This document shows, piece by piece, positions 46,384 through 63,451 of a stretch of 64,000 nucleotides of DNA. A program made the translations under genes and the position numbers. Origin of the DNA: an uncultured Bacilli bacterium (GTDB lineage Bacteria; Bacillota_I; Bacilli_A; RFN20; CAG-826); the NCBI GenBank assembly GCA_905235515.1, contig CAJOLV010000001.1, positions 2,170 through 66,169 of the forward strand, in the 5' to 3' direction. The notes under the pieces were generated by a model that saw only the letters and a program-made list of their open reading frames with translations, had not been told where the DNA came from and made no database searches. The first letter of the stretch is position 1. Each line of letters begins with the position of its first letter.

Positions 46384-46509
46384 TGGATTCTAGCCCTTTA
46401 TTTTATAAAATTGTCTTAAAAATAATACAAAATAACGATTTTTGAATATTTTAGAGACTAAAAAAATAGTTTCTACTTTTTATTATGCGTGATATATAAT
46501 ACACACGAT

Positions 46510-47598: not shown

Positions 47599-47620
47599 AA
47601 GCGGGGAACCGTTTCTTTTT
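47597..47620 (+). terminator. Terminator after the GGDEF gene
   Basis: AGAAGCGG-GGAA-CCGTTTCT-TTTT. Confidence 0.75.
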
Positions 47621-47646: not shown

Positions 47647-47676
47647 TTGACAAAATAATAAAAATAAATTTAATAT
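47647..47676 (+). promoter_or_regulatory. SigmaA promoter of the first TasA-like gene
   Basis: TTGACA (47647-47652), 18 bp, TAATAT (47671-47676), followed by a ~140 nt structured leader. Confidence 0.7.
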
Positions 47677-47819
47677 ATTCGTGCAAAGCAAAAGCGACTG
47701 AGACGTCCCTTCTTAGTTGGCGACACGTGATGCAAAAGTATCTATCATCCATCCAGTTAAATAAAAGATAGAATAATTGGATGATTTTTGTCGTTTATAC
47801 TAAGGAGAACAAAAATATT

Positions 47820-48734
47820 ATGAAAAAATCAAAAATTATCGTTCCTGCCCTCGGTATCCTTTTACTCTCAACAGCTGCCTCTATTTCTGGCACAGTTGCA
47901 TGGTTCACCGCAAGCAGAACATTCTCAACATCAGTCTCTGAATTTGGCGTCGGATCAATCGATGGTCAATTAAAAGCTACAGTCGCCGCTGGTGTTGGCA
48001 CAAAAGTCGGTACTAATGATAGCACAATCGAATTTGCAGTTGATGATACACCATCTGTTTTAACAGATGCTTCCTACTATTCTACTGGTCGAGTAGTTTA
48101 TACAGATGATGCTGTTGTTACAGAAGCCGGTGGAGGCACTAATACCACTGCATTCTATTTAGTTGGTACAGATGGCACACGTACCGCGGCTAACCTCAAA
48201 GCTGGTTCAAAAGATAGTAAAGATTATTATTATGCTGTTACATGGACAATCACATTAAAATATGAAGGCTCTGCTACATCTAATAATGTGCATATGTTAT
48301 TTGACAGTACAGAATCTAGTATTACAGTCACTAGCTCTTCCGAAGGTACTGATAAACATTTAGATATTGGTAATGGTATTAGATTCAACTTTGAAGTTAA
48401 TTCTGCTAGTAAAGTCAACTATGCTCCATTAAGAGAAACTTCTGGTGTTAATAATGTTGCTTCCGCTACTACTACACAAGCTACACAACAACTTATCGCT
48501 AGCGATACCACAATCACAAAATTACCAGACAATAAAACAGCCACTGTTGCAGCAACCCACAAAGAATATTTAGGTACTACTGCTCCAGATGAAAATTTTG
48601 TTGTTACAGTTACTGCTTGGTTAGAAGGTACAGATGCTGACGTGTTATCCTCACTTCTTGATCCAAATATGACAATCTCTGGCAACTTAAACTTCTATTG
48701 CAGAACCGAAGGTACAGACAGCACAGCTCTCTAA
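47820..48734 (+). CDS. SipW-signal (TasA/camelysin-like) secreted subunit A, 304 aa
   Basis: RBS AAGGAG; MKKSKIIVPALGILLLSTAASISGTVA|WFT resembles the TasA GGTWA|AFND signal; C-terminal TAWLEGTD...ISGNLNF. Confidence 0.78.
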   Translation: MKKSKIIVPALGILLLSTAASISGTVAWFTASRTFSTSVSEFGVGSIDGQLKATVAAGVGTKVGTNDSTIEFAVDDTPSVLTDASYYSTGRVVYTDDAVVTEAGGGTNTTAFYLVGTDGTRTAANLKAGSKDSKDYYYAVTWTITLKYEGSATSNNVHMLFDSTESSITVTSSSEGTDKHLDIGNGIRFNFEVNSASKVNYAPLRETSGVNNVASATTTQATQQLIASDTTITKLPDNKTATVAATHKEYLGTTAPDENFVVTVTAWLEGTDADVLSSLLDPNMTISGNLNFYCRTEGTDSTAL

Positions 48735-48753
48735 TCTAAACCATTTATAAACT

Positions 48754-48783
48754 ACACCTCGATTAATTCGGGGTGTTTTTTTA
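48754..48783 (+). terminator. Terminator after subunit A
   Basis: ACACCTCGA/TCGGGGTGT stem followed by 7 T. Confidence 0.85.
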
Positions 48784-48880
48784 TGTTATTAAGATATTGT
48801 AAGACTATGTCTTTAAAAAAAGTATTTCAAAAAATAAGTGGATGCTATAATATATACTACAAGGTGAACTTGCCTAATTT

Positions 48881-49240
48881 ATGAAAAATAAAAAACCATT
48901 ATTTATCGCCTTGATAGCTGTAGATGTCGCCATTACAGTGTTTTTATTCGTTATAAGCATTATAATGCTTGCTAAGACAGCCGGTAAGACTGCTAACGAG
49001 ATTCAAAATGCTACTGGATTAATTGGATATCTACAAAATCACCCACTCGTATATGGGTTAGCGTTTGTGGTTCCTTTATTCTTATTGTTAGCAGGCAATA
49101 TTATTGGACTAGTCATTTATGTGAAAAAAACCACTGAAAGAAAGCCAATGCAAGTTAATGATCTTAGTGAAGAGCAAAAAGAAGCTCTCAGACAAGAACT
49201 CCTTAAGGAATTACAAGAAAATAGTGAGAAAAAAGAATAG
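48881..49240 (+). CDS. Two-TM small protein resembling SipW without its catalytic domain
   Basis: TM-loop-TM-tail topology; tail DLSEEQKEALRQELLKEL matches the SipW tail ELSDKDKERLKQQLLEEM (9/18 identical); own extended -10 TGCTATAAT at 48843. Confidence 0.7.
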   Translation: MKNKKPLFIALIAVDVAITVFLFVISIIMLAKTAGKTANEIQNATGLIGYLQNHPLVYGLAFVVPLFLLLAGNIIGLVIYVKKTTERKPMQVNDLSEEQKEALRQELLKELQENSEKKE

Positions 49241-49260
49241 CGAGATATCGTTATTTTTTT
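49236..49260 (+). terminator. Terminator
   Basis: AATAGCGA-GATA-TCGTTATT-TTTTT. Confidence 0.75.
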
Positions 49261-49274
49261 ATAAAAATTAGATA

Positions 49275-49303
49275 TTGCAAGTTTAAATATATTGTGATAA
49301 TAT
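49275..49303 (+). promoter_or_regulatory. SigmaA promoter driving the riboswitch leader
   Basis: TTGCAA (49275-49280), 17 bp, extended -10 TG-A-TAATAT (49295-49303); the aptamer starts a few nt downstream. Confidence 0.8.
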
Positions 49304-49306
49304 TCA

Positions 49307-49390
49307 CTCGAGTAAAAAGCAAAACCGTAGAAATACGGCGACGCAAAACTACAGGGTCTTATTTATATAAGATAGCCAGCTGCCTTCGGG
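49307..49390 (+). ncRNA. GEMM-I (c-di-GMP-I class) riboswitch aptamer, A20 variant
   Basis: AGCAAAA-CCGTA-GAAA-TACGG-CGACGCAAAAC-TACAGGG-TCTTA/TAAGA-TAGCCAGCTGCC matches the GEMM-I layout (GNRA loop, GACGCAAA junction, 3' CCAGCTGCC). P1 CTCGAG/CTTCGGG. Position 49318 (Vc2 G20 equivalent) is A. Confidence 0.92.
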
Positions 49391-49439
49391 ATGAAACATC
49401 CTGCCAATGTATTGGATGATAGGCGCTGGCTTTTTGTTT
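49374..49439 (+). terminator. Riboswitch expression platform: terminator overlapping the aptamer (ON switch)
   Basis: AGCCAGC-T-GCCT (49374-49385, aptamer 3' strand) pairs with AGGC-GCTGGCT (49421-49431), followed by TTTTGTTT. Confidence 0.8.
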
Positions 49440-49490
49440 CAACCCATGGGACAAATTACGCTCAATTATTTTTTGAGCACACTTCATCTT

Positions 49491-50324
49491 ATGGTCGAAT
49501 TAGCTTATGTAAAAAAACGGAAGAGAAGAAAATTAGTAGCAATTCTAAGTGGTATTGCTTCTTTAGCTATAGCGGTATTTATTATCGTGGCATTTCTCGG
49601 AAGATTCGTTGGAACTTTTACAGTCGCTCTGGACTCAGGAGATGTAAAGCTATCACTAGCGGAAAAGTCTTCATTTGAAGAAGCTACTTCGTACATTAAG
49701 TTCGATCAACTTCCTTCCTTCGATTTGACAACATTTACAAATCTACCGGAAGCAAGCACAATCGATAACGAACAAAGCGATTACCTCTATGGTGCTGTAC
49801 CAGATGGTAAAGGCAATTCAGTATTGAGATACTTCAAAAGTACGTTCTATGTAAAGAACACTGGTGAAATCACAGCGGATTATGATCTTAAAATCAATAT
49901 CACTAAGAATGAACCAGGCACCACAGCAAAAGGTGGATTGATTTATCTAGATACCATCTTACGCGTTATGGTGTATGAGAACAACGCAGATACAGACGAA
50001 CACAATTACAGTGTGTATGCTCACAAGAGAAGAACACCAAATACTTCGACTGTTGAAGCCGACATATTCAAAGAATATACATCATATAGCGATGAATCAG
50101 AACTTAGAGAATACGGAGAAGACTTACCGTTCCTTGCGGAAATGTTTGAAACAGATAACACTGTTGTCACATTATCCAATATAGGGTTTACCAAAGGTGA
50201 AACAAAAAGATACACAATTGTTACTTGGCTCGAAGGTGAAGACATCGATGCCCAAGGAAATCCCCCGAAAGGTGGAAATTTAAAGTTAGGAGTTACAATT
50301 AACGCTTATGAAAACACAAAATAA
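49491..50324 (+). CDS. TasA-like paralog B with a non-canonical (basic + TM) N-terminus
   Basis: KKRKRRK plus a TM helix; shares YFKSTFYVKN, LDTILRVMV and TIVTWLEGED...LKLGV motifs with the other four paralogs. Start uncertain (49446 or 49491); 49407 lies upstream of the attenuator. Confidence 0.7.
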   Translation: MVELAYVKKRKRRKLVAILSGIASLAIAVFIIVAFLGRFVGTFTVALDSGDVKLSLAEKSSFEEATSYIKFDQLPSFDLTTFTNLPEASTIDNEQSDYLYGAVPDGKGNSVLRYFKSTFYVKNTGEITADYDLKINITKNEPGTTAKGGLIYLDTILRVMVYENNADTDEHNYSVYAHKRRTPNTSTVEADIFKEYTSYSDESELREYGEDLPFLAEMFETDNTVVTLSNIGFTKGETKRYTIVTWLEGEDIDAQGNPPKGGNLKLGVTINAYENTK

Positions 50325-51258
50325 AAAGAAAATCATTGTTTCTACGCTAGCTCTTGCAATGGGTGCTGCTTTAGCAGGTTCCATTTCAGGATCTGTCGCG
50401 TGGTATCAATATTCCACACGTGCCGCTGCACAAATTGCAGGTACTTCTGCTGGAACAGTTGGTGAATTGCAAATTAGAGGTGCTAAACATGGCCAAGAAT
50501 TAGACGAAGGCAACGATAGCAACTATTTAGAATTAGGTACAGAAAATTACAAACCAATGTCTATGTATATAGTAGATAGTGAAACTGGTGCTAAGAAGTA
50601 TGTCCACAACCCAGTTTATCAAGTTCAAGAATCCAAAGCTTATAGTGAAAGTGAAACCCCACACTATATTGACTACGATTTACAATTCAAATTTGAACAT
50701 AGAGAAACAGACGCTGCTTTATTAGCGAAAAATGTTTATTTATCCAGATTAGAAATCGTCGCTGCCAGTGATGCTACAGCTGATATCTCCAAAGCAGTCA
50801 GAGTCGAATTCCTTAATGGCGATACATGCAAAGCTTTCTTAGCAAAAGAAAGTGCACAAGTTACAGACACACAAGGTCAATTAGATTTAAATGGTAATGG
50901 TGTTAAAGACGCTATGGATTTTGATTGCCAAGACACAAACACAACCAAAATCAACTATATGAACAAAGCCGAAACTGGTTTAACTTATACAACCGATGCT
51001 TTCGCTGACAAGATTGTTGACACAACCGCTACTAATTTTGATCCATATGACATCGAAACGCTCCAAGCTGGTAAATCATTAATTACAACCAAAGATTCTG
51101 ATGGTGGTTGGTCTGATACATTAACAGTTAGAATTTGGCTCGAAGGTTGGGCATTATTAGGTGCTTCCGGTTCTGAAAGTGCCGATTGGCCAACTGATTA
51201 CATTGGACAAAACTTCAATGTTAATATGCAATTCGTCTGCTCTGCAGTCGCACAATAA
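50308..51258 (+). CDS. SipW-signal TasA-like subunit C, 316 aa
   Basis: LAGSISGSVA|WYQY signal; DISKAVRVEF; RIWLEGW...FNVNMQF. Confidence 0.78.
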   Translation: MKTQNKKKIIVSTLALAMGAALAGSISGSVAWYQYSTRAAAQIAGTSAGTVGELQIRGAKHGQELDEGNDSNYLELGTENYKPMSMYIVDSETGAKKYVHNPVYQVQESKAYSESETPHYIDYDLQFKFEHRETDAALLAKNVYLSRLEIVAASDATADISKAVRVEFLNGDTCKAFLAKESAQVTDTQGQLDLNGNGVKDAMDFDCQDTNTTKINYMNKAETGLTYTTDAFADKIVDTTATNFDPYDIETLQAGKSLITTKDSDGGWSDTLTVRIWLEGWALLGASGSESADWPTDYIGQNFNVNMQFVCSAVAQ

Positions 51259-51292
51259 TCTTAGTAAACACAAAAATAAATAGATACAAGAA

Positions 51293-51334
51293 TTCAAGGG
51301 TAAAGTTACGTACTTACGCGACTTTGCCCTTGAA
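51293..51334 (+). other. 19 bp intergenic stem-loop without a plus-strand U-tract (candidate mRNA stabiliser/processing site)
   Basis: TTCAAGGGTAAAGTTACGT-ACTT-ACGCGACTTTGCCCTTGAA followed by AAAA. Confidence 0.6.
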
Positions 51335-51374
51335 AAAACTCTATTAAATAAAATTTAAAAGAAAGGATACACGC

Positions 51375-52514
51375 ATGAAGACCAAAATGAGATGGCATTT
51401 ATTACCAATCATCGGCGGCTTAATTACGTTCGCAGCTTTTGTGGGCTCAATTAGCGGCTCTCTTGCTTGGTGGGCATACTCAACCAGAGTCTCAGTTCAA
51501 TACCAAGGTACTTCTGTCGCAACATCTGTCCAATTACAAATTGGATTAAAAACTGAAGATTTCAGTGATAGTGATGTAGCACAATTGACCGCTCTTGGCA
51601 TGACTGAAGACACTGACTTAGCGTCTGGTAATACGAGATATTTATTCTCTAAAGCTGGTGCTGGTTTGCCTGAACGCACAATTGCCACTTATTTGCAAAT
51701 TCAAGGCGATTACTCGATCAATACATTGTATCCTGTCACCACTAGACAACATAAAATTGGTGACGAATTAAAACTATATCGTCCTTTAATTAAAGGAACC
51801 CCAGACAATTTACAACTTACAACTACAAATAGATACGTAAAAATTCCATTTGTTTTCCGTGTTGTTACATTAAATGAAAACGAACCAGTCAAGAACCAAT
51901 ATATTTGGTTAACTCATGTTGGCGTTGAGGCTAATAGCCCGAATTCCCATATTAGAGAAGCTGTTAGAATGTATATGGATAATGGTTTGACCAAATACAT
52001 TATTAATCCTACAGACGAAAGTGTTGAATCTGTTGGCGCTACTAAAGTATTTGGATTATTAGACTTAGATACAAATGGATATTATGACCAAGATGTAAAT
52101 GGTAAAGAAATCGTTTATGGACAATATACAGGTAATCCTAACGATACCTTTGTTCCTACAAGCGACACTCTTGACAATATTAATGGTGTTAGTGACACCA
52201 CTAATCAAACATCTTTCTATGCAAAGCATAAAGCTGGCAACACTTGTTATAATTCATTATCTGGTATTGATACCAGTGATGGCTTAAATGGTTTAGCCCA
52301 ATATAGACCTATGGGCTATATGATTCCGGAAGACAAGCCAGGAGGCTTTGATGAATATGAAAAAGCAATCTGTCAAACTGGTAATGACGCTAATGCATTA
52401 GCAGAACTAGATATGACAGTGTATCTCGAAGGATGGGATCATTCAGTTGTTGATGAAGAATTAGGATATGGTTTTAATTTAGGACTACAATTCCAGATTA
52501 ATTTCGTAAACTAA
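51375..52514 (+). CDS. SipW-signal TasA-like subunit D, 379 aa
   Basis: FVGSISGSLA|WWAY signal; HIREAVRMYM; TVYLEGWD...FNLGLQF. Confidence 0.78.
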   Translation: MKTKMRWHLLPIIGGLITFAAFVGSISGSLAWWAYSTRVSVQYQGTSVATSVQLQIGLKTEDFSDSDVAQLTALGMTEDTDLASGNTRYLFSKAGAGLPERTIATYLQIQGDYSINTLYPVTTRQHKIGDELKLYRPLIKGTPDNLQLTTTNRYVKIPFVFRVVTLNENEPVKNQYIWLTHVGVEANSPNSHIREAVRMYMDNGLTKYIINPTDESVESVGATKVFGLLDLDTNGYYDQDVNGKEIVYGQYTGNPNDTFVPTSDTLDNINGVSDTTNQTSFYAKHKAGNTCYNSLSGIDTSDGLNGLAQYRPMGYMIPEDKPGGFDEYEKAICQTGNDANALAELDMTVYLEGWDHSVVDEELGYGFNLGLQFQINFVN

Positions 52515-52515
52515 T

Positions 52516-53655
52516 ATGAACAGAAAAAGAATCATAACTACGAGTTTAATAGGCTCAATCGGGTTGACCGTATTGAGCTTATCTTTGTCTTTTGCGTGGT
52601 ATAATTCTTCGGAAAATTTATATCTCGATACATTAACTATTAATATATCATCTTCTCGTGATTTAAGGATTGCGACAACCCCTGATGAAACTAAATTAGT
52701 TACATCACTTCAATATAAGATGGACGCTCTTGATTCTGAAAATTCCTTAGAGAACAAGAATCCATTCAAACCAGTCTCGACAATGTTTAAATCGAACTGG
52801 ATTAATGAAAAAAAACAAGACCCGGTATTTTATGAATATACCAGTGCGATTATGGATGAAAATGATGAGCCAATACCAACAGTGGTTGATGATAGTTGGG
52901 GATATTATTCACAACACCTCTGGCTATACTGTGACCGCGATACAAAAGTAACCATTGACTCAACAACATTCAATCTCAACCCAGTGTTTAGGAGCAATGA
53001 AGTTCGCGCTGAACAATTACTCAATTCTGTCTATATCCGTGATCAATATGAACTTGAACACCCAGATTGGACAGATGAACAAATTCTAGAAGACATCATC
53101 GAAAACTTGAACAACCTAGTCAAATGTATGAGAATGAGTATTCTAGATCCAGACTTAGATAATTATAGCTACACAATTTTAGATCCTTTGAAGGATGGAG
53201 AAACTGAATTAGGTGGTAGAGAAGACTTGTTCCTCTCTGGCTACTATGATTCATATTCCAAACTCAATGCATCTAATGAATTTGAGTGGTATGAAATATT
53301 ATATGGAGAGATTAAAAACCGTGATAAAGCTGTTTATAACGAAGCTCTCCCAGATGAAATCCCAGCAGTGGGAACTAAAACATCATTCAATGCATCGACA
53401 AAAGAAAATGTTCATGCATTCAATAAAGAAGCCAGCATTGCTAATGGATTAGAAATCGTAAAAGAAGATTCCATTTCATTAGATGAATTGGAAGAAAAAT
53501 TCCAAGTTAAATTAAAAGCTGGGCAATTAAAAGAAATTGTCCTATCCATATATATGGAAGGATGGGACCTTGATTGTGTAAATAGCCATATGGGAGGAAG
53601 CTTCGGTATGGATCTCCAATTCAAGGTCGCAGAAATGAACGATCAAGACGATTAA
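52516..53655 (+). CDS. SipW-signal TasA-like subunit E, 379 aa
   Basis: LSLSLSFA|WYNS signal; NLVKCMRMSI; SIYMEGWD...FGMDLQF. Confidence 0.75.
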   Translation: MNRKRIITTSLIGSIGLTVLSLSLSFAWYNSSENLYLDTLTINISSSRDLRIATTPDETKLVTSLQYKMDALDSENSLENKNPFKPVSTMFKSNWINEKKQDPVFYEYTSAIMDENDEPIPTVVDDSWGYYSQHLWLYCDRDTKVTIDSTTFNLNPVFRSNEVRAEQLLNSVYIRDQYELEHPDWTDEQILEDIIENLNNLVKCMRMSILDPDLDNYSYTILDPLKDGETELGGREDLFLSGYYDSYSKLNASNEFEWYEILYGEIKNRDKAVYNEALPDEIPAVGTKTSFNASTKENVHAFNKEASIANGLEIVKEDSISLDELEEKFQVKLKAGQLKEIVLSIYMEGWDLDCVNSHMGGSFGMDLQFKVAEMNDQDD

Positions 53656-53669
53656 AGGAGAAATGCTAT

Positions 53670-55187
53670 ATGACTGCTTATTTCGAATATTTACGAGAAT
53701 TAGTAACTAGATTCTTCTCAGACTTAGGAAGATTTTTTGCTAAAGCATTTGGTTCACCATGGGCGGATGTTCCAGGTAACTTCGAAGCATATAATTCTTT
53801 CTTAGCATCTCATAAAGATCAATTTGGTTTTGGTGGCTGGCTATTATTTGTGGTTTTCCTTCTCCTTGTTATCGCACTTATTGGTGGGGCCCTTTTTGGT
53901 CTATTCATTTTAATAAGAAAGTATGTTCGTTTCGTTAGAAAAGAACTCGATAAAGATGAATTAAGAGCACAAGTTGAAAGACTTAATTATGAACTCTATC
54001 AAGCTATCACTGAAAAAGATAAAATCTTGAACTTAAAAACAACATATATGGGTGTTAAACCTGAAGATATGAAAAAAGAAGACAAAGAAACCCTCGATGA
54101 AATCTCTTCACGTTTCCCAAAACTTGTTCGTGTTGACAATCAATACAAAGGTGTTGACCTCACAATTCCTAATAAAGATGGCTTATCTTTAGAAGAATTA
54201 TGTAATGCTTTTAGAAACTTCGCTGCTAGTCAATTTGGTCTCTACTACCGTATTGATACAATCAGACAAATGTTTGCGGGTATTGCTACCTCTAAGTTAA
54301 TCATCTTAGAAGGTATCTCTGGTACAGGTAAAACATCCTTATCTTATGCATTAGGTAAATTCTTCGCCTTTGATTCTGCAATCATTCCAGTTCAACCATC
54401 TTGGAAAGACCGTTCGGAATTATTAGGTTACTATAATGAATTCACAAAGAAGTTTAATGAATCTGAATTCTTAAAAGCCTTATATGTTACAACATATCGT
54501 AAAGAATTAGATGTCATCGTTCTCGATGAAATGAACTTAGCTCGTATTGAATATTACTTTGCAGAATTCTTATCTGTTATGGAAATGAGAGATACCTCCG
54601 ATTGGTTAATCGACTTAATTCCAGCTGTGCAAGAAGGCGATCCACAACACTTAAGAGATGGTAAATTATTAATTCCACAAAACGTCATCTTCTTTGGCAC
54701 CGCCAATAACGATGACTCTACATTTACTATTTCTGATAAGGTTTACGACAGAGCAATCTCCCTCTTCTTTGACGATAAAGGTCGTCCATTTGAAGCTGAA
54801 CGTCAAGATGCTATATCTATTCCATATCAACAACTTAAAACATTATTCGATGAAGCGATTAACCAATATCCAATCTCTGAATCTATGTTAGACAAGTTCT
54901 CTCAATTAGATAACTTTGTCATTAAGAAATTCAAGTTAGCCTTTGGTAACCGTATTTTGAAACAATTAGATTCCTTTATCCCAGTTTATATTTCCTGTGG
55001 TGGTAAAGAAGTTGATGGTTTTGACTTCATCTTTACAAATAAAATTTTGAAGAAATTTGAATCCTTAAATATCGCTTTCTTCAAAGACGAATTAAAAGAA
55101 TTAAGTGGTCAATTAGACAAATTATACGGAAAGAACACTTTCCCAATGGCGCATCGTTATATCGATGATTTAATCAAGAACAACTAG
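53670..55187 (+). CDS. McrB-like AAA+ NTPase with an N-terminal TM helix and coiled coil
   Basis: Walker A GISGTGKT, VQPSWKDRSELLGYYN, Walker B LDEMNLARIEYYF, McrB-type GTANNDD...KVYDRA; TM at aa ~56-82. Confidence 0.85.
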   Translation: MTAYFEYLRELVTRFFSDLGRFFAKAFGSPWADVPGNFEAYNSFLASHKDQFGFGGWLLFVVFLLLVIALIGGALFGLFILIRKYVRFVRKELDKDELRAQVERLNYELYQAITEKDKILNLKTTYMGVKPEDMKKEDKETLDEISSRFPKLVRVDNQYKGVDLTIPNKDGLSLEELCNAFRNFAASQFGLYYRIDTIRQMFAGIATSKLIILEGISGTGKTSLSYALGKFFAFDSAIIPVQPSWKDRSELLGYYNEFTKKFNESEFLKALYVTTYRKELDVIVLDEMNLARIEYYFAEFLSVMEMRDTSDWLIDLIPAVQEGDPQHLRDGKLLIPQNVIFFGTANNDDSTFTISDKVYDRAISLFFDDKGRPFEAERQDAISIPYQQLKTLFDEAINQYPISESMLDKFSQLDNFVIKKFKLAFGNRILKQLDSFIPVYISCGGKEVDGFDFIFTNKILKKFESLNIAFFKDELKELSGQLDKLYGKNTFPMAHRYIDDLIKNN

Positions 55188-55205
55188 AAATAATTAGCAA
55201 ATCCC

Positions 55206-57245
55206 ATGCAAAAAAACAGAAATCGCACATTATTTAAGAAATTAGTGAGTAAGATTAACACTCTTAACGGAGAAAAGGATGTCTCCGATATTTCGCGTGA
55301 TTTAAAGCATGGTAAAAACACCTACATGAGATTAGACCGACTAGAGTCTAGCAGCTTTGATATGGTGTGGATTAAACGTATCGAAGATTGTATTTATGAT
55401 TTAGGTGCGATTGTTGGTAATCCAAGACAAGTGACTAAAACAGTCGGCAACATTGTTCCAGTTGAATTAGCGAAAAAAATCAACTCGGAAAGTGTTATGC
55501 ACTTAGCAAGCCACACCCAATATATTAAAGACATCACTGAAAATGGCGATGTTGTTCCAAATAAAATTCTCAATATGGGCGCTGAAGAAGACATCCATAC
55601 TTATGAGAATAGATTCATTGCTACCCTTATTAGAAGATTAGTACTCTTTGTTGAAAAGAGATATGAGTTCGTCAAAAAGTTTGCTCCTCTCCATGATGAG
55701 GAGATTTTGTATTTTAAAAACAAATCCATCGTCGATGGGGCAGAAGTAGAAATTGAAACTAAGATTAAGGTCAAGAGCGAATCTCAAACCACTATGGCGG
55801 AGACTTCCAATAAATACATTGACCGTATTATGAAGATTAGAGAATACATCTTATACTTCTATGGTTCTAATTTTATGAGAGAACTAAAGACTGAAAGAGA
55901 TGTGCGTAATCCAATCGTCATGACTAACATCTTAAGAAAGAATCCAAAATATCATAAATGTTATGAATTATATCGTTTCATTGAAAAATATGAAGGTTTA
56001 GGTGTGTCTTATAAAGTTGATGAAAATATCGCTAATTTTGATGAGCAAGATTTGAAAGAAATGAACGCAGTGATGCTCGCTAACTATTTAGCCTTGAAAT
56101 CAAAGGATAAGAAGCCTCCTCTTAAACATAACACCAAACAATATAAACCACGTATTCTCACCTCTCTTGATGACGAAGAATTTGTTTATGGTGATCTTTA
56201 TAAAGGCCCAATCGAATTCATGCGTATCGATAAGGGCTATATCGAATATCTTGAATCTTTAGTGAAGAAAGATTTACCAGTCCACCCAACTAAGATTGAA
56301 AAAGAATATTACAAAGAAGAATATCAACAAAAGACTGAAGTTAAAACTATTAAAAACGCAATCGAAAAGACTCTTAAAAGAAAACAAAAAGAACAAAATG
56401 AGTTCGATAAGAAGGCCAAAACCATTATCGCTCTTAGAGAGAAAGAAGAAAGAGAGCGTATTGCTGCTGAACAAGAAGCCGCACGTCTTAAAGAAGAAGA
56501 AAGAATTGAAGCGATTCGTCGTCAACTCATTGAATCCGCAAAAGCGGAACAACCAGTGGAAGAAGAACCAGTTGTTAGTGAAGAGGAAGAACTCGTTATT
56601 AGAGATATTCCTGTTTATGAAGAACCAGTTCAAGAAGAAACCCCTGTTGAACCTGAATCAATAAAAGAATCTGTTATTGAAGAACCTCAAGAGGAAGTTT
56701 TACCTGTGGAAGAAACAGATGAAACTCCTGTTAAAATAGTGGAAGAACAACCTCAAGAACAACCATTGGAAGAGATTGTTGAACAAGAAGAACCACAACC
56801 TGAAGTTATTGAAGAAACTCCAGCGGAAGAACCTGCTCCAGAACAAGAACCAGTTAAGAAACCACATAAGCCAAGAAAACCAAGAGCAAAACCTGCTCCA
56901 GTTGTCGAAGAGGTGCCAGTGGAGGAACCTGCGCCAGTTGAACCAGAACCAACTCCAGAACCAGAACCAGAAATAATTGAAGAAAAACCAGTTTCTGCGG
57001 CGGTTTTAAATAAACCAAAGAAAAAACCTGCTCCAAAGAAAAAGCGCAAACCAGCGCCTAAGAAGGTCAAAGAAGAACCAAAATTAGAACCAATTCCGGG
57101 TCGCTTTATCGTCAAGACTGGCCAAGGTTATTATGTGAAAAAGAATAAATATTCTATTTATAAACATGAAGCATGGGTCTTTGATGATTTCAATGAAGCC
57201 AATCAATTAAAGAACACCTTAGGTGGTAAGGTGGTTAAATTATGA
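55206..57245 (+). CDS. DUF2357 (McrC N-terminal-like) protein with a coiled coil and an acidic Glu/Pro-rich tail; no nuclease domain seen
   Basis: TYENRFIATLIRRL and LRKNPKYHKCYELYRF are DUF2357-type motifs; directly follows the McrB-like gene; C-terminal half is low complexity. Confidence 0.75.
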   Translation: MQKNRNRTLFKKLVSKINTLNGEKDVSDISRDLKHGKNTYMRLDRLESSSFDMVWIKRIEDCIYDLGAIVGNPRQVTKTVGNIVPVELAKKINSESVMHLASHTQYIKDITENGDVVPNKILNMGAEEDIHTYENRFIATLIRRLVLFVEKRYEFVKKFAPLHDEEILYFKNKSIVDGAEVEIETKIKVKSESQTTMAETSNKYIDRIMKIREYILYFYGSNFMRELKTERDVRNPIVMTNILRKNPKYHKCYELYRFIEKYEGLGVSYKVDENIANFDEQDLKEMNAVMLANYLALKSKDKKPPLKHNTKQYKPRILTSLDDEEFVYGDLYKGPIEFMRIDKGYIEYLESLVKKDLPVHPTKIEKEYYKEEYQQKTEVKTIKNAIEKTLKRKQKEQNEFDKKAKTIIALREKEERERIAAEQEAARLKEEERIEAIRRQLIESAKAEQPVEEEPVVSEEEELVIRDIPVYEEPVQEETPVEPESIKESVIEEPQEEVLPVEETDETPVKIVEEQPQEQPLEEIVEQEEPQPEVIEETPAEEPAPEQEPVKKPHKPRKPRAKPAPVVEEVPVEEPAPVEPEPTPEPEPEIIEEKPVSAAVLNKPKKKPAPKKKRKPAPKKVKEEPKLEPIPGRFIVKTGQGYYVKKNKYSIYKHEAWVFDDFNEANQLKNTLGGKVVKL

Positions 57246-58087
57246 GCAAGGCCAAAGAGAAAAAGCCAAAGAGTAAAGTCAGAGTAATTTTTGAATGGGT
57301 GATCACCATCTTATTTGGTGGTCTATTCATCTTTTTCGCCATCGGCCAAATCACTGGCATGGTTCATAAAAAAGAGAATTATGGAGAAACCCTCTCCTTT
57401 GGTTATGGTAGCTTTATTATCAAAACCGATTCCATGGAGCCTGAATATAAAATCGGGACAGCAATTGTCACTTATAAAGCTGAACCAGAAGTTATTTTTG
57501 AAAAATACACAAACGGAGAAACCGTTGATATCACATTCTATGATTGCTTTGATCATAATCGTAGCCAATATAATTATGATTTAGTCACACCTACCGACAC
57601 TGAATTAACGGAAAGAACTTATTCCCTTAATCAAGTGATGACCCATAGATTAAGAGAGATTGTCGTTCGTGATGATGTGGAATTAGGCCAAGGTAAATAC
57701 ACATTTGTCGTTTCTGGCACTAATATTTCTGAACACCAAGCACAGAAAGGTCAATATCAGTTATTAACTGAAAACGAACTTCTTGGTATAGTAAAAGTGA
57801 ACTCAAAAGTTTTAGGTGGATTTTTTAGATTCGTTTCTTCACCTTGGGGACTACTTGTATTCTTACTCGTTCCAGCCTTCTATCTTGTTATCACTAGTGT
57901 TCTAGATATCTTTAAAGCAATTAAAGAACCAGAAGAAGGAGAAACTCCAAAAGAAGTAGTGGACGCTCAACCAAAACAAGCTAATGCTTCCTTAGAAGAA
58001 TTATCTGATAAAGATAAAGAGAGATTAAAGCAACAATTACTTGAAGAAATGATCAACAAGAAGAGAGGAGATAACAATGGGAAATAA
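57242..58087 (+). CDS. sipW: SipW-type (ER/archaeal-type, S26B) signal peptidase I
   Basis: N-terminal TM; GYGSFIIKTDSMEP (catalytic Ser); VMTHRL (His); ELLGIV; C-terminal FVSSPWGLLVFLLVP TM; ATGA overlap with the upstream stop. Confidence 0.85.
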   Translation: MSKAKEKKPKSKVRVIFEWVITILFGGLFIFFAIGQITGMVHKKENYGETLSFGYGSFIIKTDSMEPEYKIGTAIVTYKAEPEVIFEKYTNGETVDITFYDCFDHNRSQYNYDLVTPTDTELTERTYSLNQVMTHRLREIVVRDDVELGQGKYTFVVSGTNISEHQAQKGQYQLLTENELLGIVKVNSKVLGGFFRFVSSPWGLLVFLLVPAFYLVITSVLDIFKAIKEPEEGETPKEVVDAQPKQANASLEELSDKDKERLKQQLLEEMINKKRGDNNGK

Positions 58088-59630
58088 AAAACTACATTTA
58101 GCATTCGCAATATTGTTCTCTGGTCTTTTTATTGGAACAGCTATAGCTTTGCTCGTTTTCGTTTTTAAGGGAACATATAACGATTATCCAATTATTTCTG
58201 TTTTGTTCATCTTTGTCGCCTTATTAACCGCATTGACTGCGATGTATTTCTTAATTAAATACAATACCATTCGCGCCGAATTAAAAACGGTGATTAATGA
58301 TAACATATATAACTTAGGTGAAAAGACCGCCTTTTTTGGTGTGACAGCCTTTGCTAAACGTGTTAACCGTTTAAATAGAAATCGTCGTTTAGCACAAAAG
58401 AAACAATATGTAATAGCTTTTACAGCAGCGAACTTATCAACAACTCAAAATCCTAATAGAGATGACTCTGTCACTTTATTAAATGCTCGTATTGCTTCTT
58501 TCTTATCTAGTTTTGTTCACATCACCAAATCTAATAATAGTCGTAAGAGAAGAAAAGATAGAGTGGTTTGTTTTAATCGTGGTTCCTTCTTAGTCTATTT
58601 ATTCTTAGATAACGAACACGATGTGAGACATATTGTTGATGAGATTTCTAATAATATTTTTGAAATTGCCGAACAATACCAAATCCATATTTATGTTCAA
58701 CCCTTCTTTGGTGTCGCAGAAATTGAAGAAAATAAACCATTATTAGAATCTATTGAAGACGCAAATATCGCAAGAAACGTCTCTGAACGTAACTTTGAAA
58801 CTTTAACTTATTACCATGACTCCTTTAGAAGAAGATCATCCAAAGAAGAAGTAAAAGAAATTGCAGAAGCTTTGGCGAATAATGAATTCGTTGTTTACTA
58901 TCAACCAAAATTTAATCTCAGCACAAGAAGATTTATCTCCTCTGAAGCTTTAGTGAGATGGAATAGTAAAAAACATGGTTTGTTATCTCCTAATAAATTT
59001 ATCCCAGTTGTTGAAGCAGCAGGTTTAATTCATGAAATTGATACCTTCGTTTTTAAACGCGTTTGTGAAGATTTAAACGAAGCAAAAAGAAAGGGAAGAA
59101 GAATGTTACCAGTCTCTATTAACTTCTCCTTATATGAGTTCTATTCCTCTGAATTTTTAAATCACATCATTGATTTGCTGGATAAATATCAAATTAATTC
59201 ATCTTATATTGAAATTGAAATTACCGAAGCAACATCTCGTGCGAATACTTTTACTGCTATCTCGATTATCAAGAAATTAAGAGATAAAGGTATCCGTGTT
59301 TTAATGGATGACTTTGGTGTTGGCTTCTCTAATATTAACAACTTAAAAAAGATACCTTTTGATGCGGTCAAAATTGATAAATCATTTATCGATGATATTG
59401 CGACAGATTTAAAAAGTAGAGCGATTGTGAAATTCTTAATCGAATTATGTTTAGCAAACGATTTAGAAGTTATCGCTGAAGGTGTTGACAATAAAGAACA
59501 AGTTGAAATATTAAAGAAACTCAAATGTAACACAATTCAAGGATTTTATTATTCCAAAGCTTTACCACAAAAAGAATATGAACAATTCCTTCTTAATAAC
59601 CCGTTTGAAAGAAAGGAGAGTAGTAACTAA
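58077..59630 (+). CDS. Membrane-anchored EAL phosphodiesterase with a degenerate GGDEF domain
   Basis: YYQPK, SEALVRW, EIEITE, MDDFGVGFS, KIDKSF and AEGVD all intact; the GGDEF position reads NRGSF. Confidence 0.9.
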   Translation: MGNKKLHLAFAILFSGLFIGTAIALLVFVFKGTYNDYPIISVLFIFVALLTALTAMYFLIKYNTIRAELKTVINDNIYNLGEKTAFFGVTAFAKRVNRLNRNRRLAQKKQYVIAFTAANLSTTQNPNRDDSVTLLNARIASFLSSFVHITKSNNSRKRRKDRVVCFNRGSFLVYLFLDNEHDVRHIVDEISNNIFEIAEQYQIHIYVQPFFGVAEIEENKPLLESIEDANIARNVSERNFETLTYYHDSFRRRSSKEEVKEIAEALANNEFVVYYQPKFNLSTRRFISSEALVRWNSKKHGLLSPNKFIPVVEAAGLIHEIDTFVFKRVCEDLNEAKRKGRRMLPVSINFSLYEFYSSEFLNHIIDLLDKYQINSSYIEIEITEATSRANTFTAISIIKKLRDKGIRVLMDDFGVGFSNINNLKKIPFDAVKIDKSFIDDIATDLKSRAIVKFLIELCLANDLEVIAEGVDNKEQVEILKKLKCNTIQGFYYSKALPQKEYEQFLLNNPFERKESSN

Positions 59631-60364
59631 TGATTATCATTTTAGGTTCCACACACGATGACATTCTCTATTTTGAAAGTGTCATGACTAACCGCCGTGA
59701 AGAAACACTATTTGAAAAATATCCATTAGAATATGGTACTATTTTTAACCAAGAAGTCGTTTTAGCGTATGATATTTACACCTCCTATGAATCAGGCATT
59801 ATTGCTAATTACTTATTACAAAAACATTTTGTTATTTTATGTATCGTCGTTGGCAAATGCGTGAGCTACTCCTCCGATATGAAACCGGGAGATATCGCTA
59901 TTGCGACAAATGTCATCTTTGGGGATGTCAATCAAATTAAAGAGAGCAACTCTCAATTAGGGCAAATTCCTCATTTACCAAGAGAATTACCAGCTTCTGA
60001 TGAAGTTATTGTCTATCTCGAACAAGCGCTTGAGAAAAGAAGTTTCTCCCGTCACGATAGAACATTATTTGTGACAAGCAGCAGTATTTATGAAACCGTT
60101 GAAAGAATTAAACACTTAGTGATGAACGATTATATCTTTGGTCAAAAAGAAAAAGTCGTCTTTGATTGCACTAGTGGTGGAGTCTTCTTATCCGCAAACT
60201 TATATAACATCCCAGTCGTGGGTATTAAAGTTGTTGAAAAATTGCTTAATGAGAAATCGACAGTTGATAATTATATCAATGTCTTAAAACAATATTCTGG
60301 TGTTGGTAGAGCCGTTGTCACTTGCATTGGTGATATTGGTCGTAATGATATTATGAGAGACTAG
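59630..60364 (+). CDS. MTA/SAH nucleosidase (PNP_UDP_1 fold)-like protein, catalytic motifs degenerate
   Basis: IIILGS...E, MKPGDIAIA, DVNQ...GQIP, FVTSS layout of MtnN; the EME and RxxSD equivalents read DCT and KVVEK. Confidence 0.7.
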   Translation: MIIILGSTHDDILYFESVMTNRREETLFEKYPLEYGTIFNQEVVLAYDIYTSYESGIIANYLLQKHFVILCIVVGKCVSYSSDMKPGDIAIATNVIFGDVNQIKESNSQLGQIPHLPRELPASDEVIVYLEQALEKRSFSRHDRTLFVTSSSIYETVERIKHLVMNDYIFGQKEKVVFDCTSGGVFLSANLYNIPVVGIKVVEKLLNEKSTVDNYINVLKQYSGVGRAVVTCIGDIGRNDIMRD

Positions 60365-60369
60365 TAGTT

Positions 60370-63300
60370 ATGAAAAAGAAACAAAGAGAAATTACCATAG
60401 CCCGTTCATTCGCCTTATCATTTATCATTCCAGGCGCTATTTTAGTTGCTACGCTATTCATCAGCATAGTTTTATTTATCCTTGCATCTAGATTAGATAA
60501 CAATATCTTTTTAATCGTTGGTCTTGTTGTCGTAGGAGTTTTTACTATTGCCTACGCTGCAACAAGCACTGTTTTCTTCCATAGATTAATTAAGGTCTAT
60601 CAAAATGGTTTATACAAAACCACAGCCTCTTTATTAAGAGGATTAAAACAAAATATCCCAACTGCGGATAATTATCCAAAAACCAACATTAAAGAAATGA
60701 ATGAATTACGTGATGAATTAAATGATGTGAACATAATTACATCTAATTCTACACTTATTTCGCATGACTTATCCGAAGCCTATATTCCTTTAAACTATAT
60801 TTCTGAAGAAGATAGCATCGTCACTTTAGAATCATTTAAAACAGAATTGCGCGCTTTAATTTATAGCTCGCAAAATTATCGTAACGCGATAGTGGAAGTC
60901 TTTTATGATTTAGAAGATGATATTATCACTGAAGAAGAAGGAAAGAGAATCATTGAGGTTTTAAAAGATAGTTTCCTTAATTATAGTCATCTTTTATTCA
61001 TTCCTAATGAAGATCAAACTGGTTTCTTTATGTTCTTACCAAAAGTTGACTCTATCTCTAATATTAGAGACCGCTTAGAATCCGCTTTAAAGAACATTTC
61101 CATCGCGAAAAAGACATTTGATGGTATTACCACTATTAATGCGAGATTCTCCGTTGTTTGTTATCCATATAGCAACATTAATGAACTATTCTCTGACTTA
61201 AGATACGCAAAACGTCAAGGACAAGCCCTTAATGTCTATTTACCAAGCAGATTAGCGGCCTTAAGTGAAAATAGAGTGTTGCAAAACTCCTTAAACCTTA
61301 ACCATATGTCACGAGTGATGGAAAAACTCTCTGACTTAAAGGTGACATTCAAAGAAAAAGACAAGAGTGTGAGAACTATTAAAAACACCTTGTCTGATTT
61401 AATTACCTATTTAGGTATTGATTGCGCTGGGATCATTTCATTTGATGATGTTAATAACACTTATAACGCTACTATTTCAGTAGAAAGAGATACTACACCA
61501 GTATTCCCTGAAGGAACATTAATTGAAAAGCGCTTTATTAACGCGATTGACTCCGCAAGAGATCCAGATGATTCCTATTATTTCTCAACAAGAAAGCACA
61601 CTCCATTTGAAGTGGGTAATTTCTTAGATAAGATTGGTGTCTTTAGTGGTTTCTATTATATTATTCACGACCAAACACATGTTATCTCTGTTATTTACTT
61701 CTTCAATAAAGCTAAAGATTTAATTATCGACTCCTATATTAGAGAGACAATCTTCTTGCTCTCTTATCGTATTGGTGATTTCTTCTTTATGTTAAATGAA
61801 GAACAAAAGATTGATGAAACATATAAAGAAATCAATGGTGTTTTGATGTCTAGTGACTACACCTTATATAGAATCGATAGAAATAATTACAACTTAGTTG
61901 GTTATTCTTCTCATTTCCCAACCATTTGTCCAAAAGCCAAAATTGGCGATAAATGTTATCACACCATCTATGGTTTAGATGAACCATGCCAAGGCTGTCC
62001 ATTACGTGCAAATAAGAAGATGCTATCAACCATTCGTAATAAGACATATGAAACATCTCTAACACTTAACGAATCTAATATTAGATTAGTGAGATTATTA
62101 ATGCACAATGTCAAAGATAGTGAAGACACCACTGATAGATTTGATAAGGACTTATTAATCAATTCCTACTCATCATTAAATATCTCCTTAGAAGATTTAT
62201 ATTCCATTAATGCGAGAGGTTATTTAATTGTTTTAAGAATGGATAATCATGATCAACTATTACATGACACTGGTAGTGAAGGTACCTTATATCTCACTAG
62301 ACAATTAATTAAAAATATCAAAGATATTAGACGCGCTAACGCAAATATTTATTACTTCTCACCAGAAAGTATCGCGGTTTTAATGCCAGAAGTTGGCCAA
62401 GTTGATGTTGTTAACTTTATTGAAGAGATTTATGAAGTCAGTAAAAATAAATATCAATATAATGGCTTAGATTATCAATTTAATATCACTTATTTGCCAT
62501 ACAACTTCCCACAAGCATATCCAACTGCAGATGGTTTCTTAAAATACGTGTTACGTCACTTCAACTCCTTACAATTTGAGATTAATGCCGATAAGATCTT
62601 CTTCCCAGATGGTGATTATAGTAGAAGTGCTTCCCGTAACGAATTCATTTTATCTGTTATTGATGAACAATTCGGCAACAAGACATTCTCGGTTGCCTTA
62701 CAACCAATGGTGAATTCAGAAACTAAGAACATCTATGGTGCTGAAATTCTTATCCGTCTTTCCGATAATTACCGTAACCAAGTCTTTAACGCTGATGAAT
62801 TAATTAAGGTCGCCGCGAGAAACGGTAAGATTTCGATGATTTCTAATGCGTTAATTCAATATATTGGTGAACTCTATAAGCAATATGGTTTAACTATCTT
62901 TAAACTCTATGGCTTCAAGAGATTAACAATGAACACAGACTTCTCATATTTTGATGATCCAGACTTCTTTACGACTATTTATAACTTATTCGAAGAATAT
63001 CACTTACCAAAAGAATTCTTAGGTTTTGAAATTACCGAAAGAGAAATCTATACTCACTTAGATCAATTTAGAAAAGTGGCAAGAGGTATTCTCAACCACC
63101 ATATCGTTCTCATTTGTGACCAATATAGTGGTGAATTCTTATCTATGGATACATTAAAAGAACTCGGCTTTATTGAGATTAAGATTGGTCGTTACTTAGT
63201 TGGCGATATTGAGGTCAATCCAAAGCACTTAAGCGAAATCTCCTCGATTGATAAACTTGCGACAGAACACGGCTTAAGAACGACATTCGTCGGTGTGGAA

Positions 63301-63420
63301 AATCCTGATCAATATATCTTAATTAGAGATATGGATAAGAAGTCTAACTGCCAAGGTTATCACTTCTATAAACCATTAGATGATTACCACTTAATCGAAG
63401 AGATTAGAAAGAATCGTTAA
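60370..63420 (+). CDS. 1016 aa membrane sensor: degenerate GGDEF, GAF, PAS(Cys), degenerate GGDEF, degenerate EAL
   Basis: Two TM; CPKAKIGDKCY...EPCQGCP; LQPMV...GAEILIRL, FEITE, but DDFGTG reads DQYSGE and AEGVE reads FVGVE; no intact GG(D/E)EF. Confidence 0.8.
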   Translation: MKKKQREITIARSFALSFIIPGAILVATLFISIVLFILASRLDNNIFLIVGLVVVGVFTIAYAATSTVFFHRLIKVYQNGLYKTTASLLRGLKQNIPTADNYPKTNIKEMNELRDELNDVNIITSNSTLISHDLSEAYIPLNYISEEDSIVTLESFKTELRALIYSSQNYRNAIVEVFYDLEDDIITEEEGKRIIEVLKDSFLNYSHLLFIPNEDQTGFFMFLPKVDSISNIRDRLESALKNISIAKKTFDGITTINARFSVVCYPYSNINELFSDLRYAKRQGQALNVYLPSRLAALSENRVLQNSLNLNHMSRVMEKLSDLKVTFKEKDKSVRTIKNTLSDLITYLGIDCAGIISFDDVNNTYNATISVERDTTPVFPEGTLIEKRFINAIDSARDPDDSYYFSTRKHTPFEVGNFLDKIGVFSGFYYIIHDQTHVISVIYFFNKAKDLIIDSYIRETIFLLSYRIGDFFFMLNEEQKIDETYKEINGVLMSSDYTLYRIDRNNYNLVGYSSHFPTICPKAKIGDKCYHTIYGLDEPCQGCPLRANKKMLSTIRNKTYETSLTLNESNIRLVRLLMHNVKDSEDTTDRFDKDLLINSYSSLNISLEDLYSINARGYLIVLRMDNHDQLLHDTGSEGTLYLTRQLIKNIKDIRRANANIYYFSPESIAVLMPEVGQVDVVNFIEEIYEVSKNKYQYNGLDYQFNITYLPYNFPQAYPTADGFLKYVLRHFNSLQFEINADKIFFPDGDYSRSASRNEFILSVIDEQFGNKTFSVALQPMVNSETKNIYGAEILIRLSDNYRNQVFNADELIKVAARNGKISMISNALIQYIGELYKQYGLTIFKLYGFKRLTMNTDFSYFDDPDFFTTIYNLFEEYHLPKEFLGFEITEREIYTHLDQFRKVARGILNHHIVLICDQYSGEFLSMDTLKELGFIEIKIGRYLVGDIEVNPKHLSEISSIDKLATEHGLRTTFVGVENPDQYILIRDMDKKSNCQGYHFYKPLDDYHLIEEIRKNR

Positions 63421-63423
63421 TAC

Positions 63424-63451
63424 AAAAATTGTGCAGAAATGCACTTTTTTT
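63424..63451 (+). terminator. Terminator ending the fibre/c-di-NMP operon
   Basis: GTGCA-GAAA-TGCAC stem flanked by A- and T-tracts. Confidence 0.75.

Follow-up and report, generated by a model that had tools for sequence, protein, structure and literature searches.

The gene cluster at positions 47820-63420 of the window (the whole stretch of DNA analysed here, 64,000 nucleotides (nt) long) is, with a probability that we put at about 0.6, a surface-fibre (pilus) operon of the CoCoPALM type that is induced by cyclic di-GMP (c-di-GMP) in an Erysipelotrichaceae-like bacterium of the gut or rumen. Its genes were designated A, X and B to K and all lie on the + strand. They combine a superfamily of secreted subunits including one membrane-anchored paralogue, a SipW-type signal peptidase, a pair of McrB- and McrC-like proteins and two EAL-related proteins, most of them behind a c-di-GMP riboswitch. 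All open reading frames (ORFs) were found where the preliminary description of this DNA had placed them. The features are as follows (↓, predicted cleavage site; aa, amino acids):

46489..47598, + strand: membrane diguanylate cyclase upstream of the cluster (Pfam GGDEF 9.2e-32, GGDEF motif intact)
47597-47616, + strand: intrinsic terminator after the upstream cyclase
47820..48734, + strand: A, secreted subunit paralogue with SipW-type signal SISGTVA↓WF; AAGGAG ribosome-binding site upstream
48754..48776, + strand: intrinsic terminator after A (9-bp stem, then a T-run)
48881..49240, + strand: X, small membrane protein with two helices and an acidic tail at the C-terminus; kept directly upstream of the riboswitch in close relatives
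49308..49387, + strand: c-di-GMP-I (GEMM-I) riboswitch aptamer (RF01051, 61.7 bits)
49374..49439, + strand: expression platform with competing terminator, from minimum-free-energy folds
49491..50324, + strand: B, membrane-anchored subunit paralogue with an N-terminal helix, the best conserved of the subunit paralogues
50308..51258, + strand: C, secreted subunit, signal SISGSVA↓WY
51375..52514, + strand: D, secreted subunit, signal SISGSLA↓WW
52516..53655, + strand: E, secreted subunit, signal SLSFA↓WY
53670..55187, + strand: F, McrB-like GTPase (AAA+, NxD clade; AAA_5, McrB 6hz4 and PDC-M26A matches)
55206..57245, + strand: G, McrC-like protein with N-terminal DUF2357, coiled coil and an acidic/proline-rich low-complexity linker
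57242..58087, + strand: H, signal peptidase of the SipW/archaeal type (S26B), with transmembrane helices at both termini and a charged tail in the cytoplasm
58077..59630, + strand: I, membrane EAL-domain protein (EAL 5.5e-71)
59630..60364, + strand: J, nucleoside phosphorylase/nucleosidase fold (PNP_UDP_1 8.6e-12)
60370..63420, + strand: K, membrane protein of 1016 aa whose C-terminal EAL domain is degenerate (2.8e-29)
63431..63444, + strand: operon-end terminator (stem, then TTTTTTT)

The association of these genes was examined in related loci around F homologues in species-representative genomes (labelled L001 etc.). At least 594 F homologues were confirmed among the 600 pattern matches listed, and 80 loci were kept for the neighbourhood survey as one set across Bacilli, Acholeplasma-like Mollicutes and Clostridia (Erysipelotrichaceae of rumen and gut, other Bacilli, Acholeplasmataceae, Izemoplasmatales, Anaeroplasma, Ruminococcus, Lachnospiraceae and Oscillospiraceae). 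The 38 loci in which 5 kb or more was present on each side are referred to as fully covered. A G-like ORF started at most 400 nt after F in 73 of the 76 loci with room for it. A SipW-type gene was retrieved by profile search in 72 of the 80 loci, and in every fully covered one; a B-like gene together with subunit-family ORFs likewise occurred in all 38, and EAL genes in 30 of them. Since the linkage with subunits and SipW holds in this survey, F and G belong to the system as integral parts, and the pair is a constant member of the cluster in three classes of Bacillota. The preliminary description had proposed to look for the linkage of sipW with the AAA+/DUF2357 pair in other genomes, where it is now established. 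A defence-island reading, taken from the match of F to PDC-M26A, was rejected, since the synteny is conserved and a nuclease is missing.

The order X, B, C, D, E, F, G, H, I, J, K was identical on four contigs carrying C relatives. J-like ORFs were present in L001-L022, and the position of J between I and K was conserved in close relatives. In its Ruminococcus-type minimal form, the core was composed of a degenerate EAL gene, B, SipW, F, G and a second SipW gene, with a major-subunit-like gene alongside. The SipW-type gene frequently lay just before F, and a second copy directly after G. Two SipW-type genes flanking F-G were recorded in many Clostridia and Bacilli (L070, 13760-14497; L030, L031, L071, L078 and L080).

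F displayed a Walker A (GISGTGKTS), a Walker B (VLDEMN) and the signature G343-T-A-N346-N-D348-D, of which N346 and D348 (NxD) were invariant in 12 distant homologues. It matched Pfam AAA_5 (2.2e-5), McrB (PDB 6hz4, E 0.003) and the PADLOC model PDC-M26A (1.3e-39). At its N-terminus, an amphipathic segment is followed by one hydrophobic helix (approximately residues 56-80), then by a basic patch and a coiled-coil region of heptad-like pattern; the helix and the basic heptad-like stretch were conserved in the alignment of distant homologues, and no DNA-binding family match was found in the first 140 residues. The F family comprises more than 8000 clusters. Over its best 120 homologues F displayed 72-91% identity, against 31-59% for C.

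Residues 1-350 of G matched DUF2357 (1.1e-7; 31.8 bits for a cut-off of 23.3), and so did 40 of 42 G homologues. The full-length protein misses this family, probably because of its long acidic/proline-rich linker. Neither a nuclease nor any other Pfam domain was detected in G, whose remainder consists of coiled coil (an E/R/K-rich helical stretch seen by inspection) and low-complexity sequence; its relatives are only 496 aa long. The McrB-like and DUF2357 pair of the preliminary description was thus borne out by these matches.

The name CoCoPALM was introduced in one paragraph by Bell et al. (eLife 2024, PMC11090510) for a large clade of NxD McrB GTPases. According to that paragraph, an FtsB-like transmembrane and coiled-coil domain is joined N-terminally to the GTPase, coiled coils are present in the McrC homologues and a gene of the signal-peptidase family is linked; the analysis was deferred by the authors to a later paper, and the NxD McrB clade is otherwise predicted to consist of defence systems (PMC11090510). 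The locus shares with this description an NxD McrB-like GTPase with transmembrane helix and coiled coil, a DUF2357 partner, a signal-peptidase gene and its occurrence in Bacillota. Of the four published features, the NxD GTPase, the DUF2357/coiled-coil McrC and the signal peptidase were found in the window, and the FtsB-like fusion was found as an architecture only. The locus is accordingly of CoCoPALM type, a kind already named but, as far as that paragraph goes, never characterised. The claim of an undescribed system made in the preliminary description had to be given up, the McrB/McrC/signal-peptidase association having received its name in 2024 (PMC11090510).

Differences lie in what is defined. 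The published paragraph comes without experiments and without subunits, whereas subunits, B, the ON riboswitch and the EAL genes are defined in the window. The main text of PMC11090510 does not mention 'pilin', c-di-GMP or EAL, and no mention of CoCoPALM, signal peptidase, pilus or FtsB was found in those of its supplements that were searched. In the literature searched we found neither the announced follow-up nor any account beyond the 2024 paragraph. The same literature yielded no link of a c-di-GMP ON riboswitch plus degenerate EAL to such systems, and no subunit superfamily with TasA-type signals yet no detectable TasA homology.

The subunits A to E gave no Pfam or NCBIfam family match. 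When their mature parts were compared pairwise, only D and E were significantly similar (phmmer 1e-5). An iterated D profile nevertheless retrieved E (1e-58), C (4e-42), A (1e-8) and B (2e-5); A was also matched by the B profile (3e-6), and the B family aligned with the cleaved-subunit family at an hhalign probability of 97.4% (E 9e-12). By profile comparison, A to E form one superfamily that includes B, in agreement with the five paralogues initially proposed. The two motifs then noticed were likewise conserved across the superfamily: an internal arginine (A-x-R) was invariant (R165 in the C family, R158 in the B family), and in the C-terminal W-x-E-G-x-D, just before the last strand, the glycine was invariant and the aspartate nearly so among 75 diverse relatives. 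ORFs combining the signal motif with the W-x-E-G-x-D tail occurred in 64 of 84 loci. C had 324 homologues, all unnamed proteins, and its relatives derive from metagenome-assembled genomes of Erysipelotrichaceae; E was the window subunit that most often matched subunits of distant loci.

A, C, D and E display Sec-type signals with a basic n-region, a hydrophobic core and S-x-S-G-(T/S)-x-A-W (SLSFA-W in E), and the consensus over 75 relatives is T-s-T-x-A-W-F. B differs by an N-terminal transmembrane helix that looks uncleaved and by the lack of a T-x-A↓W site, so that four of the five paralogues carry the SipW-type signal, as first described. The cytoplasmic N-terminus of B, M-x-E-L-x-Y-V-K-K-R-K-R-R-K (49491-49535, residues 1-14), was nearly invariant in 74 aligned sequences whose overall identity ranged from 41 to 91%. 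Such conservation therefore suggests a cytoplasmic partner.

AlphaFold2 models of C and B were beta-rich and confident, with a pLDDT (predicted local distance difference test) score of 84.7 for C and 86.2 for B. In C, residues 10-45 had pLDDT values below 50, and the 20 residues that follow the predicted cleavage site were left unplaced in the monomer model. Those N-terminal residues of the mature protein are the best-conserved stretch of the C family (W32, Q34 and T37 invariant). In B, helix 2-35 leads directly into strand 40-48, and the segment aligned to the N-terminal extension of C is a strand packed in cis after the membrane helix. A loose but conserved N-terminus in C together with a cis strand in B is expected from donor-strand exchange with B as the base. 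From these models we infer that the cleaved subunits may each donate their N-terminal strand to a neighbour, B being the membrane-held base; B is accordingly our candidate for the base or anchor of the fibre.

At the acceptance threshold used for Foldseek (E <= 0.001), neither model had a match in the PDB. TasA was absent from the 50 best matches listed for C. For B, the TasA fibre 8aur_A was the match of highest probability but stayed sub-threshold (probability 0.94, E 7.9e-3, template-modelling scores 0.30/0.35), and this resemblance is a hint, not a result. PDB sequence searches with the C-family and 75-subunit profiles gave chance-level matches only.

The peptidase that would process these proteins is H. 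It scored 6e-10 against the NCBIfam SipW model, below the cut-off, because of an insertion of about 75 residues, but all 32 homologues matched that model and 29 of the 32 matched archaeal-type signal peptidase I. In their alignment, Ser64 (DSMEP) and His135 (THR) were invariant and the N- and C-terminal membrane helices were present, so that the SipW peptidase reported in the operon stands. The consensus signal of the subunits fell in register with that of TasA (GGT-W-A↓A-F), although weakly (hhalign E 1.2e-3, probability 19%).

Large proteins with the T-x-A-W-F signal were observed beside the CoCoPALM core in related loci: 973 aa in L003 (3138-6059, - strand), 1211 aa in L058 (17855-21488, + strand) and 1442 aa in L060 (7407-11732, + strand). 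Such proteins may be adhesins of the tip, or cargo for the same peptidase.

Genes B to K are tightly packed, with a 17-nt overlap at B/C, ATGA (4 nt) at G/H, an 11-nt overlap at H/I and TAATG at I/J; the widest intergenic gap, from C to D, is 116 nt. The only convincing intrinsic terminators on the + strand were those at 47597-47616, 48754-48776 and 63431-63444. The segment 49491-63420 thus looks like one transcript, and the earlier statement that it lacks an internal terminator holds. A forms a separate transcription unit, because the terminator at 48754-48776 closes it and the others lie outside B-K. A promoter-like TTGACA, 18 nt, TAATAT arrangement at 47647-47676 precedes A, followed by a leader of about 140 nt (47677-47819) in which no second riboswitch or other Rfam match was found at E <= 5. 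A is a candidate major subunit.

The aptamer preceding B matched RF01051 over model positions 1-87 (gathering score 35) and was the only element retrieved by an Rfam scan of the whole window. It gates B-K and not A; the picture of a riboswitch-gated locus therefore applies to the long operon, A being its own unit. Among 21 related loci surveyed for riboswitches, in three groups of seven, the aptamer was present in 17: in 7 of 7 of the closest group, each time directly before the B gene, in 7 of 7 of the Acholeplasma/Bacilli group and in 3 of 7 of the Clostridia. This recurrence upholds the c-di-GMP control proposed at the outset. In some 12 of the 21 loci the aptamer lay at most about 250 nt upstream of the B gene; other aptamers were placed ahead of the SipW-F-G block or of additional subunit genes, and tandem arrangements also occurred. 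Tandem c-di-GMP-I aptamers were seen in L028 (6150-6335 and 14119-14192), L042 (14086-14275), L035 (20883-21085) and L023 (2021-2241), the last with a c-di-GMP-I-GGC variant beside the standard aptamer; in Acholeplasma-like and other Bacilli they precede B or other subunit-like genes.

In the expression platform, the 3' strand of the aptamer, AGCCAGCTGCC (49374-49384), pairs with GGCGCTGGCT (49422-49431), which is followed by the T-run TTTTTGTTT. The minimum-free-energy folds had z-scores of -2.8 to -3.2, and a competing terminator with base changes on both arms (covarying) was found in about 8-9 of 14 leaders. Because the terminator competes with the aptamer for its 3' strand, the riboswitch is predicted to be an ON switch.

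Both EAL genes of the operon were also compared at the motif level. I keeps all of the EAL, N, EITE, DDFG, KIDK, EGVD and QG motifs and, judged from these, is a probable c-di-GMP phosphodiesterase acting as feedback. In K, inspection of the alignment revealed DDFG changed to DQYS, KID to KIG and EGVE to VGVE. Since these motifs are altered, K is not expected to be an enzyme, and its sequence makes it a candidate c-di-GMP receptor. The short EAL-like proteins adjoining B in Clostridia are also degenerate and are candidate receptors on the same grounds. The preliminary description was correct for the EAL of both proteins, but the GGDEF part that it attributed to K was not detected at E <= 1, either there or in the N-terminal half of I. 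The cyclase upstream of the cluster (46489-47598) is a likely local source of c-di-GMP, and diguanylate cyclase-like genes flank the cluster in L007, L008 and L015.

X-like ORFs were found in L001, L003, L005, L009, L011, L014, L017, L018, L020 and L022, with E-values of 6e-12 to 4e-43 except for L020 (2e-08); X itself gave no family match in Pfam or NCBIfam scans. The C-terminal parts of X and H each end in a membrane helix of the form G-L-x-x-x-x-V-P-x-F and a tail of the form LS-x-x-x-KE-x-L-x-x-x-LL-E-E, which may be a common docking motif for cytoplasmic machinery. The likeness of the two tails was not significant by BLASTP (E 0.18).

Taken as a CoCoPALM-type fibre operon, the cluster would operate as follows. 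At low c-di-GMP, the leader would fold as a terminator using the 3' strand of the aptamer, and binding of c-di-GMP would free transcription of B to K. H would cleave A, C, D and E at T/S-x-A↓W. The conserved N-terminal extension thereby exposed would dock into a neighbouring subunit, at the site filled in B by its own first strand, and a fibre would grow on B by donor-strand polymerisation. F would form a hexamer that holds G in its pore and is attached beneath the membrane through six helices and coiled coils; it would use GTP to start, gate or release assembly, possibly by way of the conserved cytoplasmic tails that B and H possess. At the protein level, c-di-GMP would be read by K, with I providing negative feedback. 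Fibre formation and the role of the GTPase are the steps that we infer.

More broadly, CoCoPALM might represent a distinct pilus pathway of single-membrane bacteria. A membrane-tethered McrB/McrC GTPase would start, power or release a donor-strand fibre of new SipW-processed subunits on an anchored paralogue, under a c-di-GMP ON riboswitch and degenerate EAL receptors, and this would extend to the wall-less Acholeplasma-like Mollicutes. We advance this wider proposal as a tentative one, short of even odds. The cluster was recorded in Acholeplasmataceae, Paracholeplasma, Izemoplasmatales, Anaeroplasma and genomes labelled Tenericutes or Mollicutes (L024, L032, L033, L035, L041-L043, L046-L051, L061 and L077). 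These lineages are generally regarded as wall-less, and in wall-less carriers a membrane-anchored base subunit would therefore be necessary.

Several observations weigh against the fibre reading. Polymerisation of the subunits is without direct support, and the call of an ON switch rests on folding predictions. Residues 1-140 of F gave no Pfam FtsB/DivIC match at E <= 1, and its first 55 residues are of ambiguous topology. To our knowledge, SipW-dependent fibres need no NTPase, which leaves the role of F/G without precedent and speculative. TIGR04088, the SipW signal model suggested initially as a check, matched 4 of 75 subunit relatives at E >= 0.01 and none of the window proteins. Finally, the mature domains displayed no sequence homology to TasA/Peptidase_M73 in hhalign comparisons with three family profiles, for which the TasA query was identical in sequence to PDB 8aur_A; Peptidase_M73 matched 1 of 75 subunit relatives (E 0.0099). 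On sequence grounds, the locus cannot be filed under TasA/Peptidase_M73, and the initial qualification as TasA-like survives for the layout of the signal peptide but not for the sequence of the mature domains.

At the level of organisation, there is a likeness to TasA-type biofilm fibres. As in TapA-SipW-TasA of B. subtilis, CalY/TasA of B. cereus and SipW-BsaA of C. perfringens, an S26B peptidase is encoded with its substrates, the signals are laid out similarly (TsT-x-AWF here, GGT-W-AAF in TasA), one accessory or anchor paralogue stands beside the main subunits and the B model bears a weak jelly-roll resemblance to the TasA fibre. By analogy, the locus would work like a SipW-dependent fibre system supplemented with a GTPase module. 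Regulation of TasA-type systems is exerted by SinR/Spo0A or two-component systems and is not known to involve c-di-GMP riboswitches.

With McrBC of E. coli (PDB 6hz4), the F/G pair has in common an AAA+ GTPase in which Walker A, Walker B and an N-x-(x)-D signature are present. In McrBC the DUF2357 domain of the partner stimulates the hexamer. The pair is distinguished by the transmembrane helix and coiled coil of F, by NxD instead of NxxD, and by a G devoid of PD-(D/E)xK nuclease; nothing here points to nucleic-acid targeting. Because both a DNA-binding domain and a nuclease are absent, the locus does not functionally belong to the McrBC restriction family. A c-di-GMP ON riboswitch at the head of a surface-appendage operon in a Gram-positive anaerobe is also found for pilA1 type IV pili and CD2831/CD3246 of Clostridioides difficile. 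Those systems combine c-di-GMP-II riboswitches with type IV pilus machinery or sortase substrates, in contrast to the class I riboswitch, SipW and McrBC-like pair described here. Type IV and sortase pili were rejected as their hallmark genes and motifs are absent: family scans of the operon proteins detected no prepilin peptidase, no G↓F-x-x-x-E pilins, no PilB/PilC motor and no pilin sortase families, and by inspection the subunits stop right after the last beta strand, without LPXTG. The Lap system of Pseudomonas (LapD/LapG/LapA) likewise associates a degenerate EAL receptor and a protease with a surface protein under c-di-GMP control, an analogy only, since its protease and receptor architectures are without homology to the window proteins.

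The secreted paralogues might, alternatively, be displayed individually as adhesins, a surface layer or a matrix binding starch, plant material or mucus. H would then mature them, B would be one more member of the family and F/G would regulate export or turnover. This is unlikely, though not lightly dismissed: no significant structural match to any pilin was obtained, the weak Foldseek matches of the B model include the F17-G, SdrE and Cea1A lectin/adhesin domains, a starch-utilisation cluster lies nearby and related loci carry very large proteins with the same signal. However, co-transcribed paralogues together with one anchored paralogue are the usual layout of a pilus, the N-terminal extension of the C family is best conserved while unplaced in the monomer model, and the TasA fibre is the top-probability match for B. 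A Lap-like inside-out switch in place of an assembly motor appears quite improbable; in it F/G, together with K and the short degenerate EAL proteins as c-di-GMP receptors, would time the cutting by the peptidase, so that anchored proteins are retained at high and shed at low c-di-GMP. B has no T-x-A↓W site, the ordinary signal peptides of the cleaved subunits would be cut co-translocationally, and no LapG-like or LapD-like domain was detected in Pfam scans, even though Clostridia do have degenerate EAL genes beside B and the peptidase, the window has K, and the cytoplasmic tail of H and N-terminus of B are conserved, the latter nearly invariant.

A role in conflict with phages, where an McrBC-derived sensor would remodel the surface or trigger a response on infection and the secreted proteins would mask receptors, has a slim chance of being correct. 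The closest named model for F is indeed a PADLOC defence candidate (PDC-M26A), and the other members of the NxD McrB clade are predicted to act in defence in the published account (PMC11090510). Against this, no nuclease, DNA- or RNA-binding or toxin domain was found, F is 72-91% identical while the subunits diverge, unlike fast-evolving defence genes, the chromosomal position beside housekeeping genes is stable, and regulation is by c-di-GMP. That an ordinary McrBC restriction module landed by chance in a surface-protein operon is next to impossible: the AAA_5 and DUF2357 matches would agree with it, but it is refuted by the neighbourhood survey, with synteny in 73 of 76 loci over Bacilli, Mollicutes and Clostridia; in addition, a transmembrane helix replaces the DNA-binding domain in F, and G lacks a nuclease.

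Elsewhere in the window, a starch/maltodextrin utilisation cluster occupies 8116-28932 (+ strand; GC content 0.36-0.40, slightly above its surroundings). It codes for an ABC ATPase, two ABC permeases, a solute-binding protein that has a Big_2 domain, a large alpha-amylase, a CBM48 enzyme and a protein of 1355 aa bearing three starch-binding CBM26 modules. Among the surveyed loci, five were on contigs labelled Bacteroides uniformis, Hallerella, Bacteroidales or Muribaculaceae (L009, L014, L025, L028 and L069). Their F homologues were 42-69% identical to that of the window, and L009 and L014 carry a full Firmicutes-type operon; these contigs are probably mis-binned and not true transfers.

What is new here is the subunit superfamily with its anchored paralogue, the conserved c-di-GMP ON riboswitch with degenerate EAL partners, and how broadly the linkage extends. 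If the fibre reading is true, a defence GTPase would have been re-used to assemble a cell-surface structure, by a pilus pathway that differs from those of the sortase, type IV, chaperone-usher, curli and TasA types. The c-di-GMP link, with an ON riboswitch before the anchor gene and degenerate EAL genes in the core cluster, offers a direct experimental handle. With at least 594 matches to F relatives in species-representative genomes, the system is common, and it probably shapes the adhesion and biofilm behaviour of major gut anaerobes.

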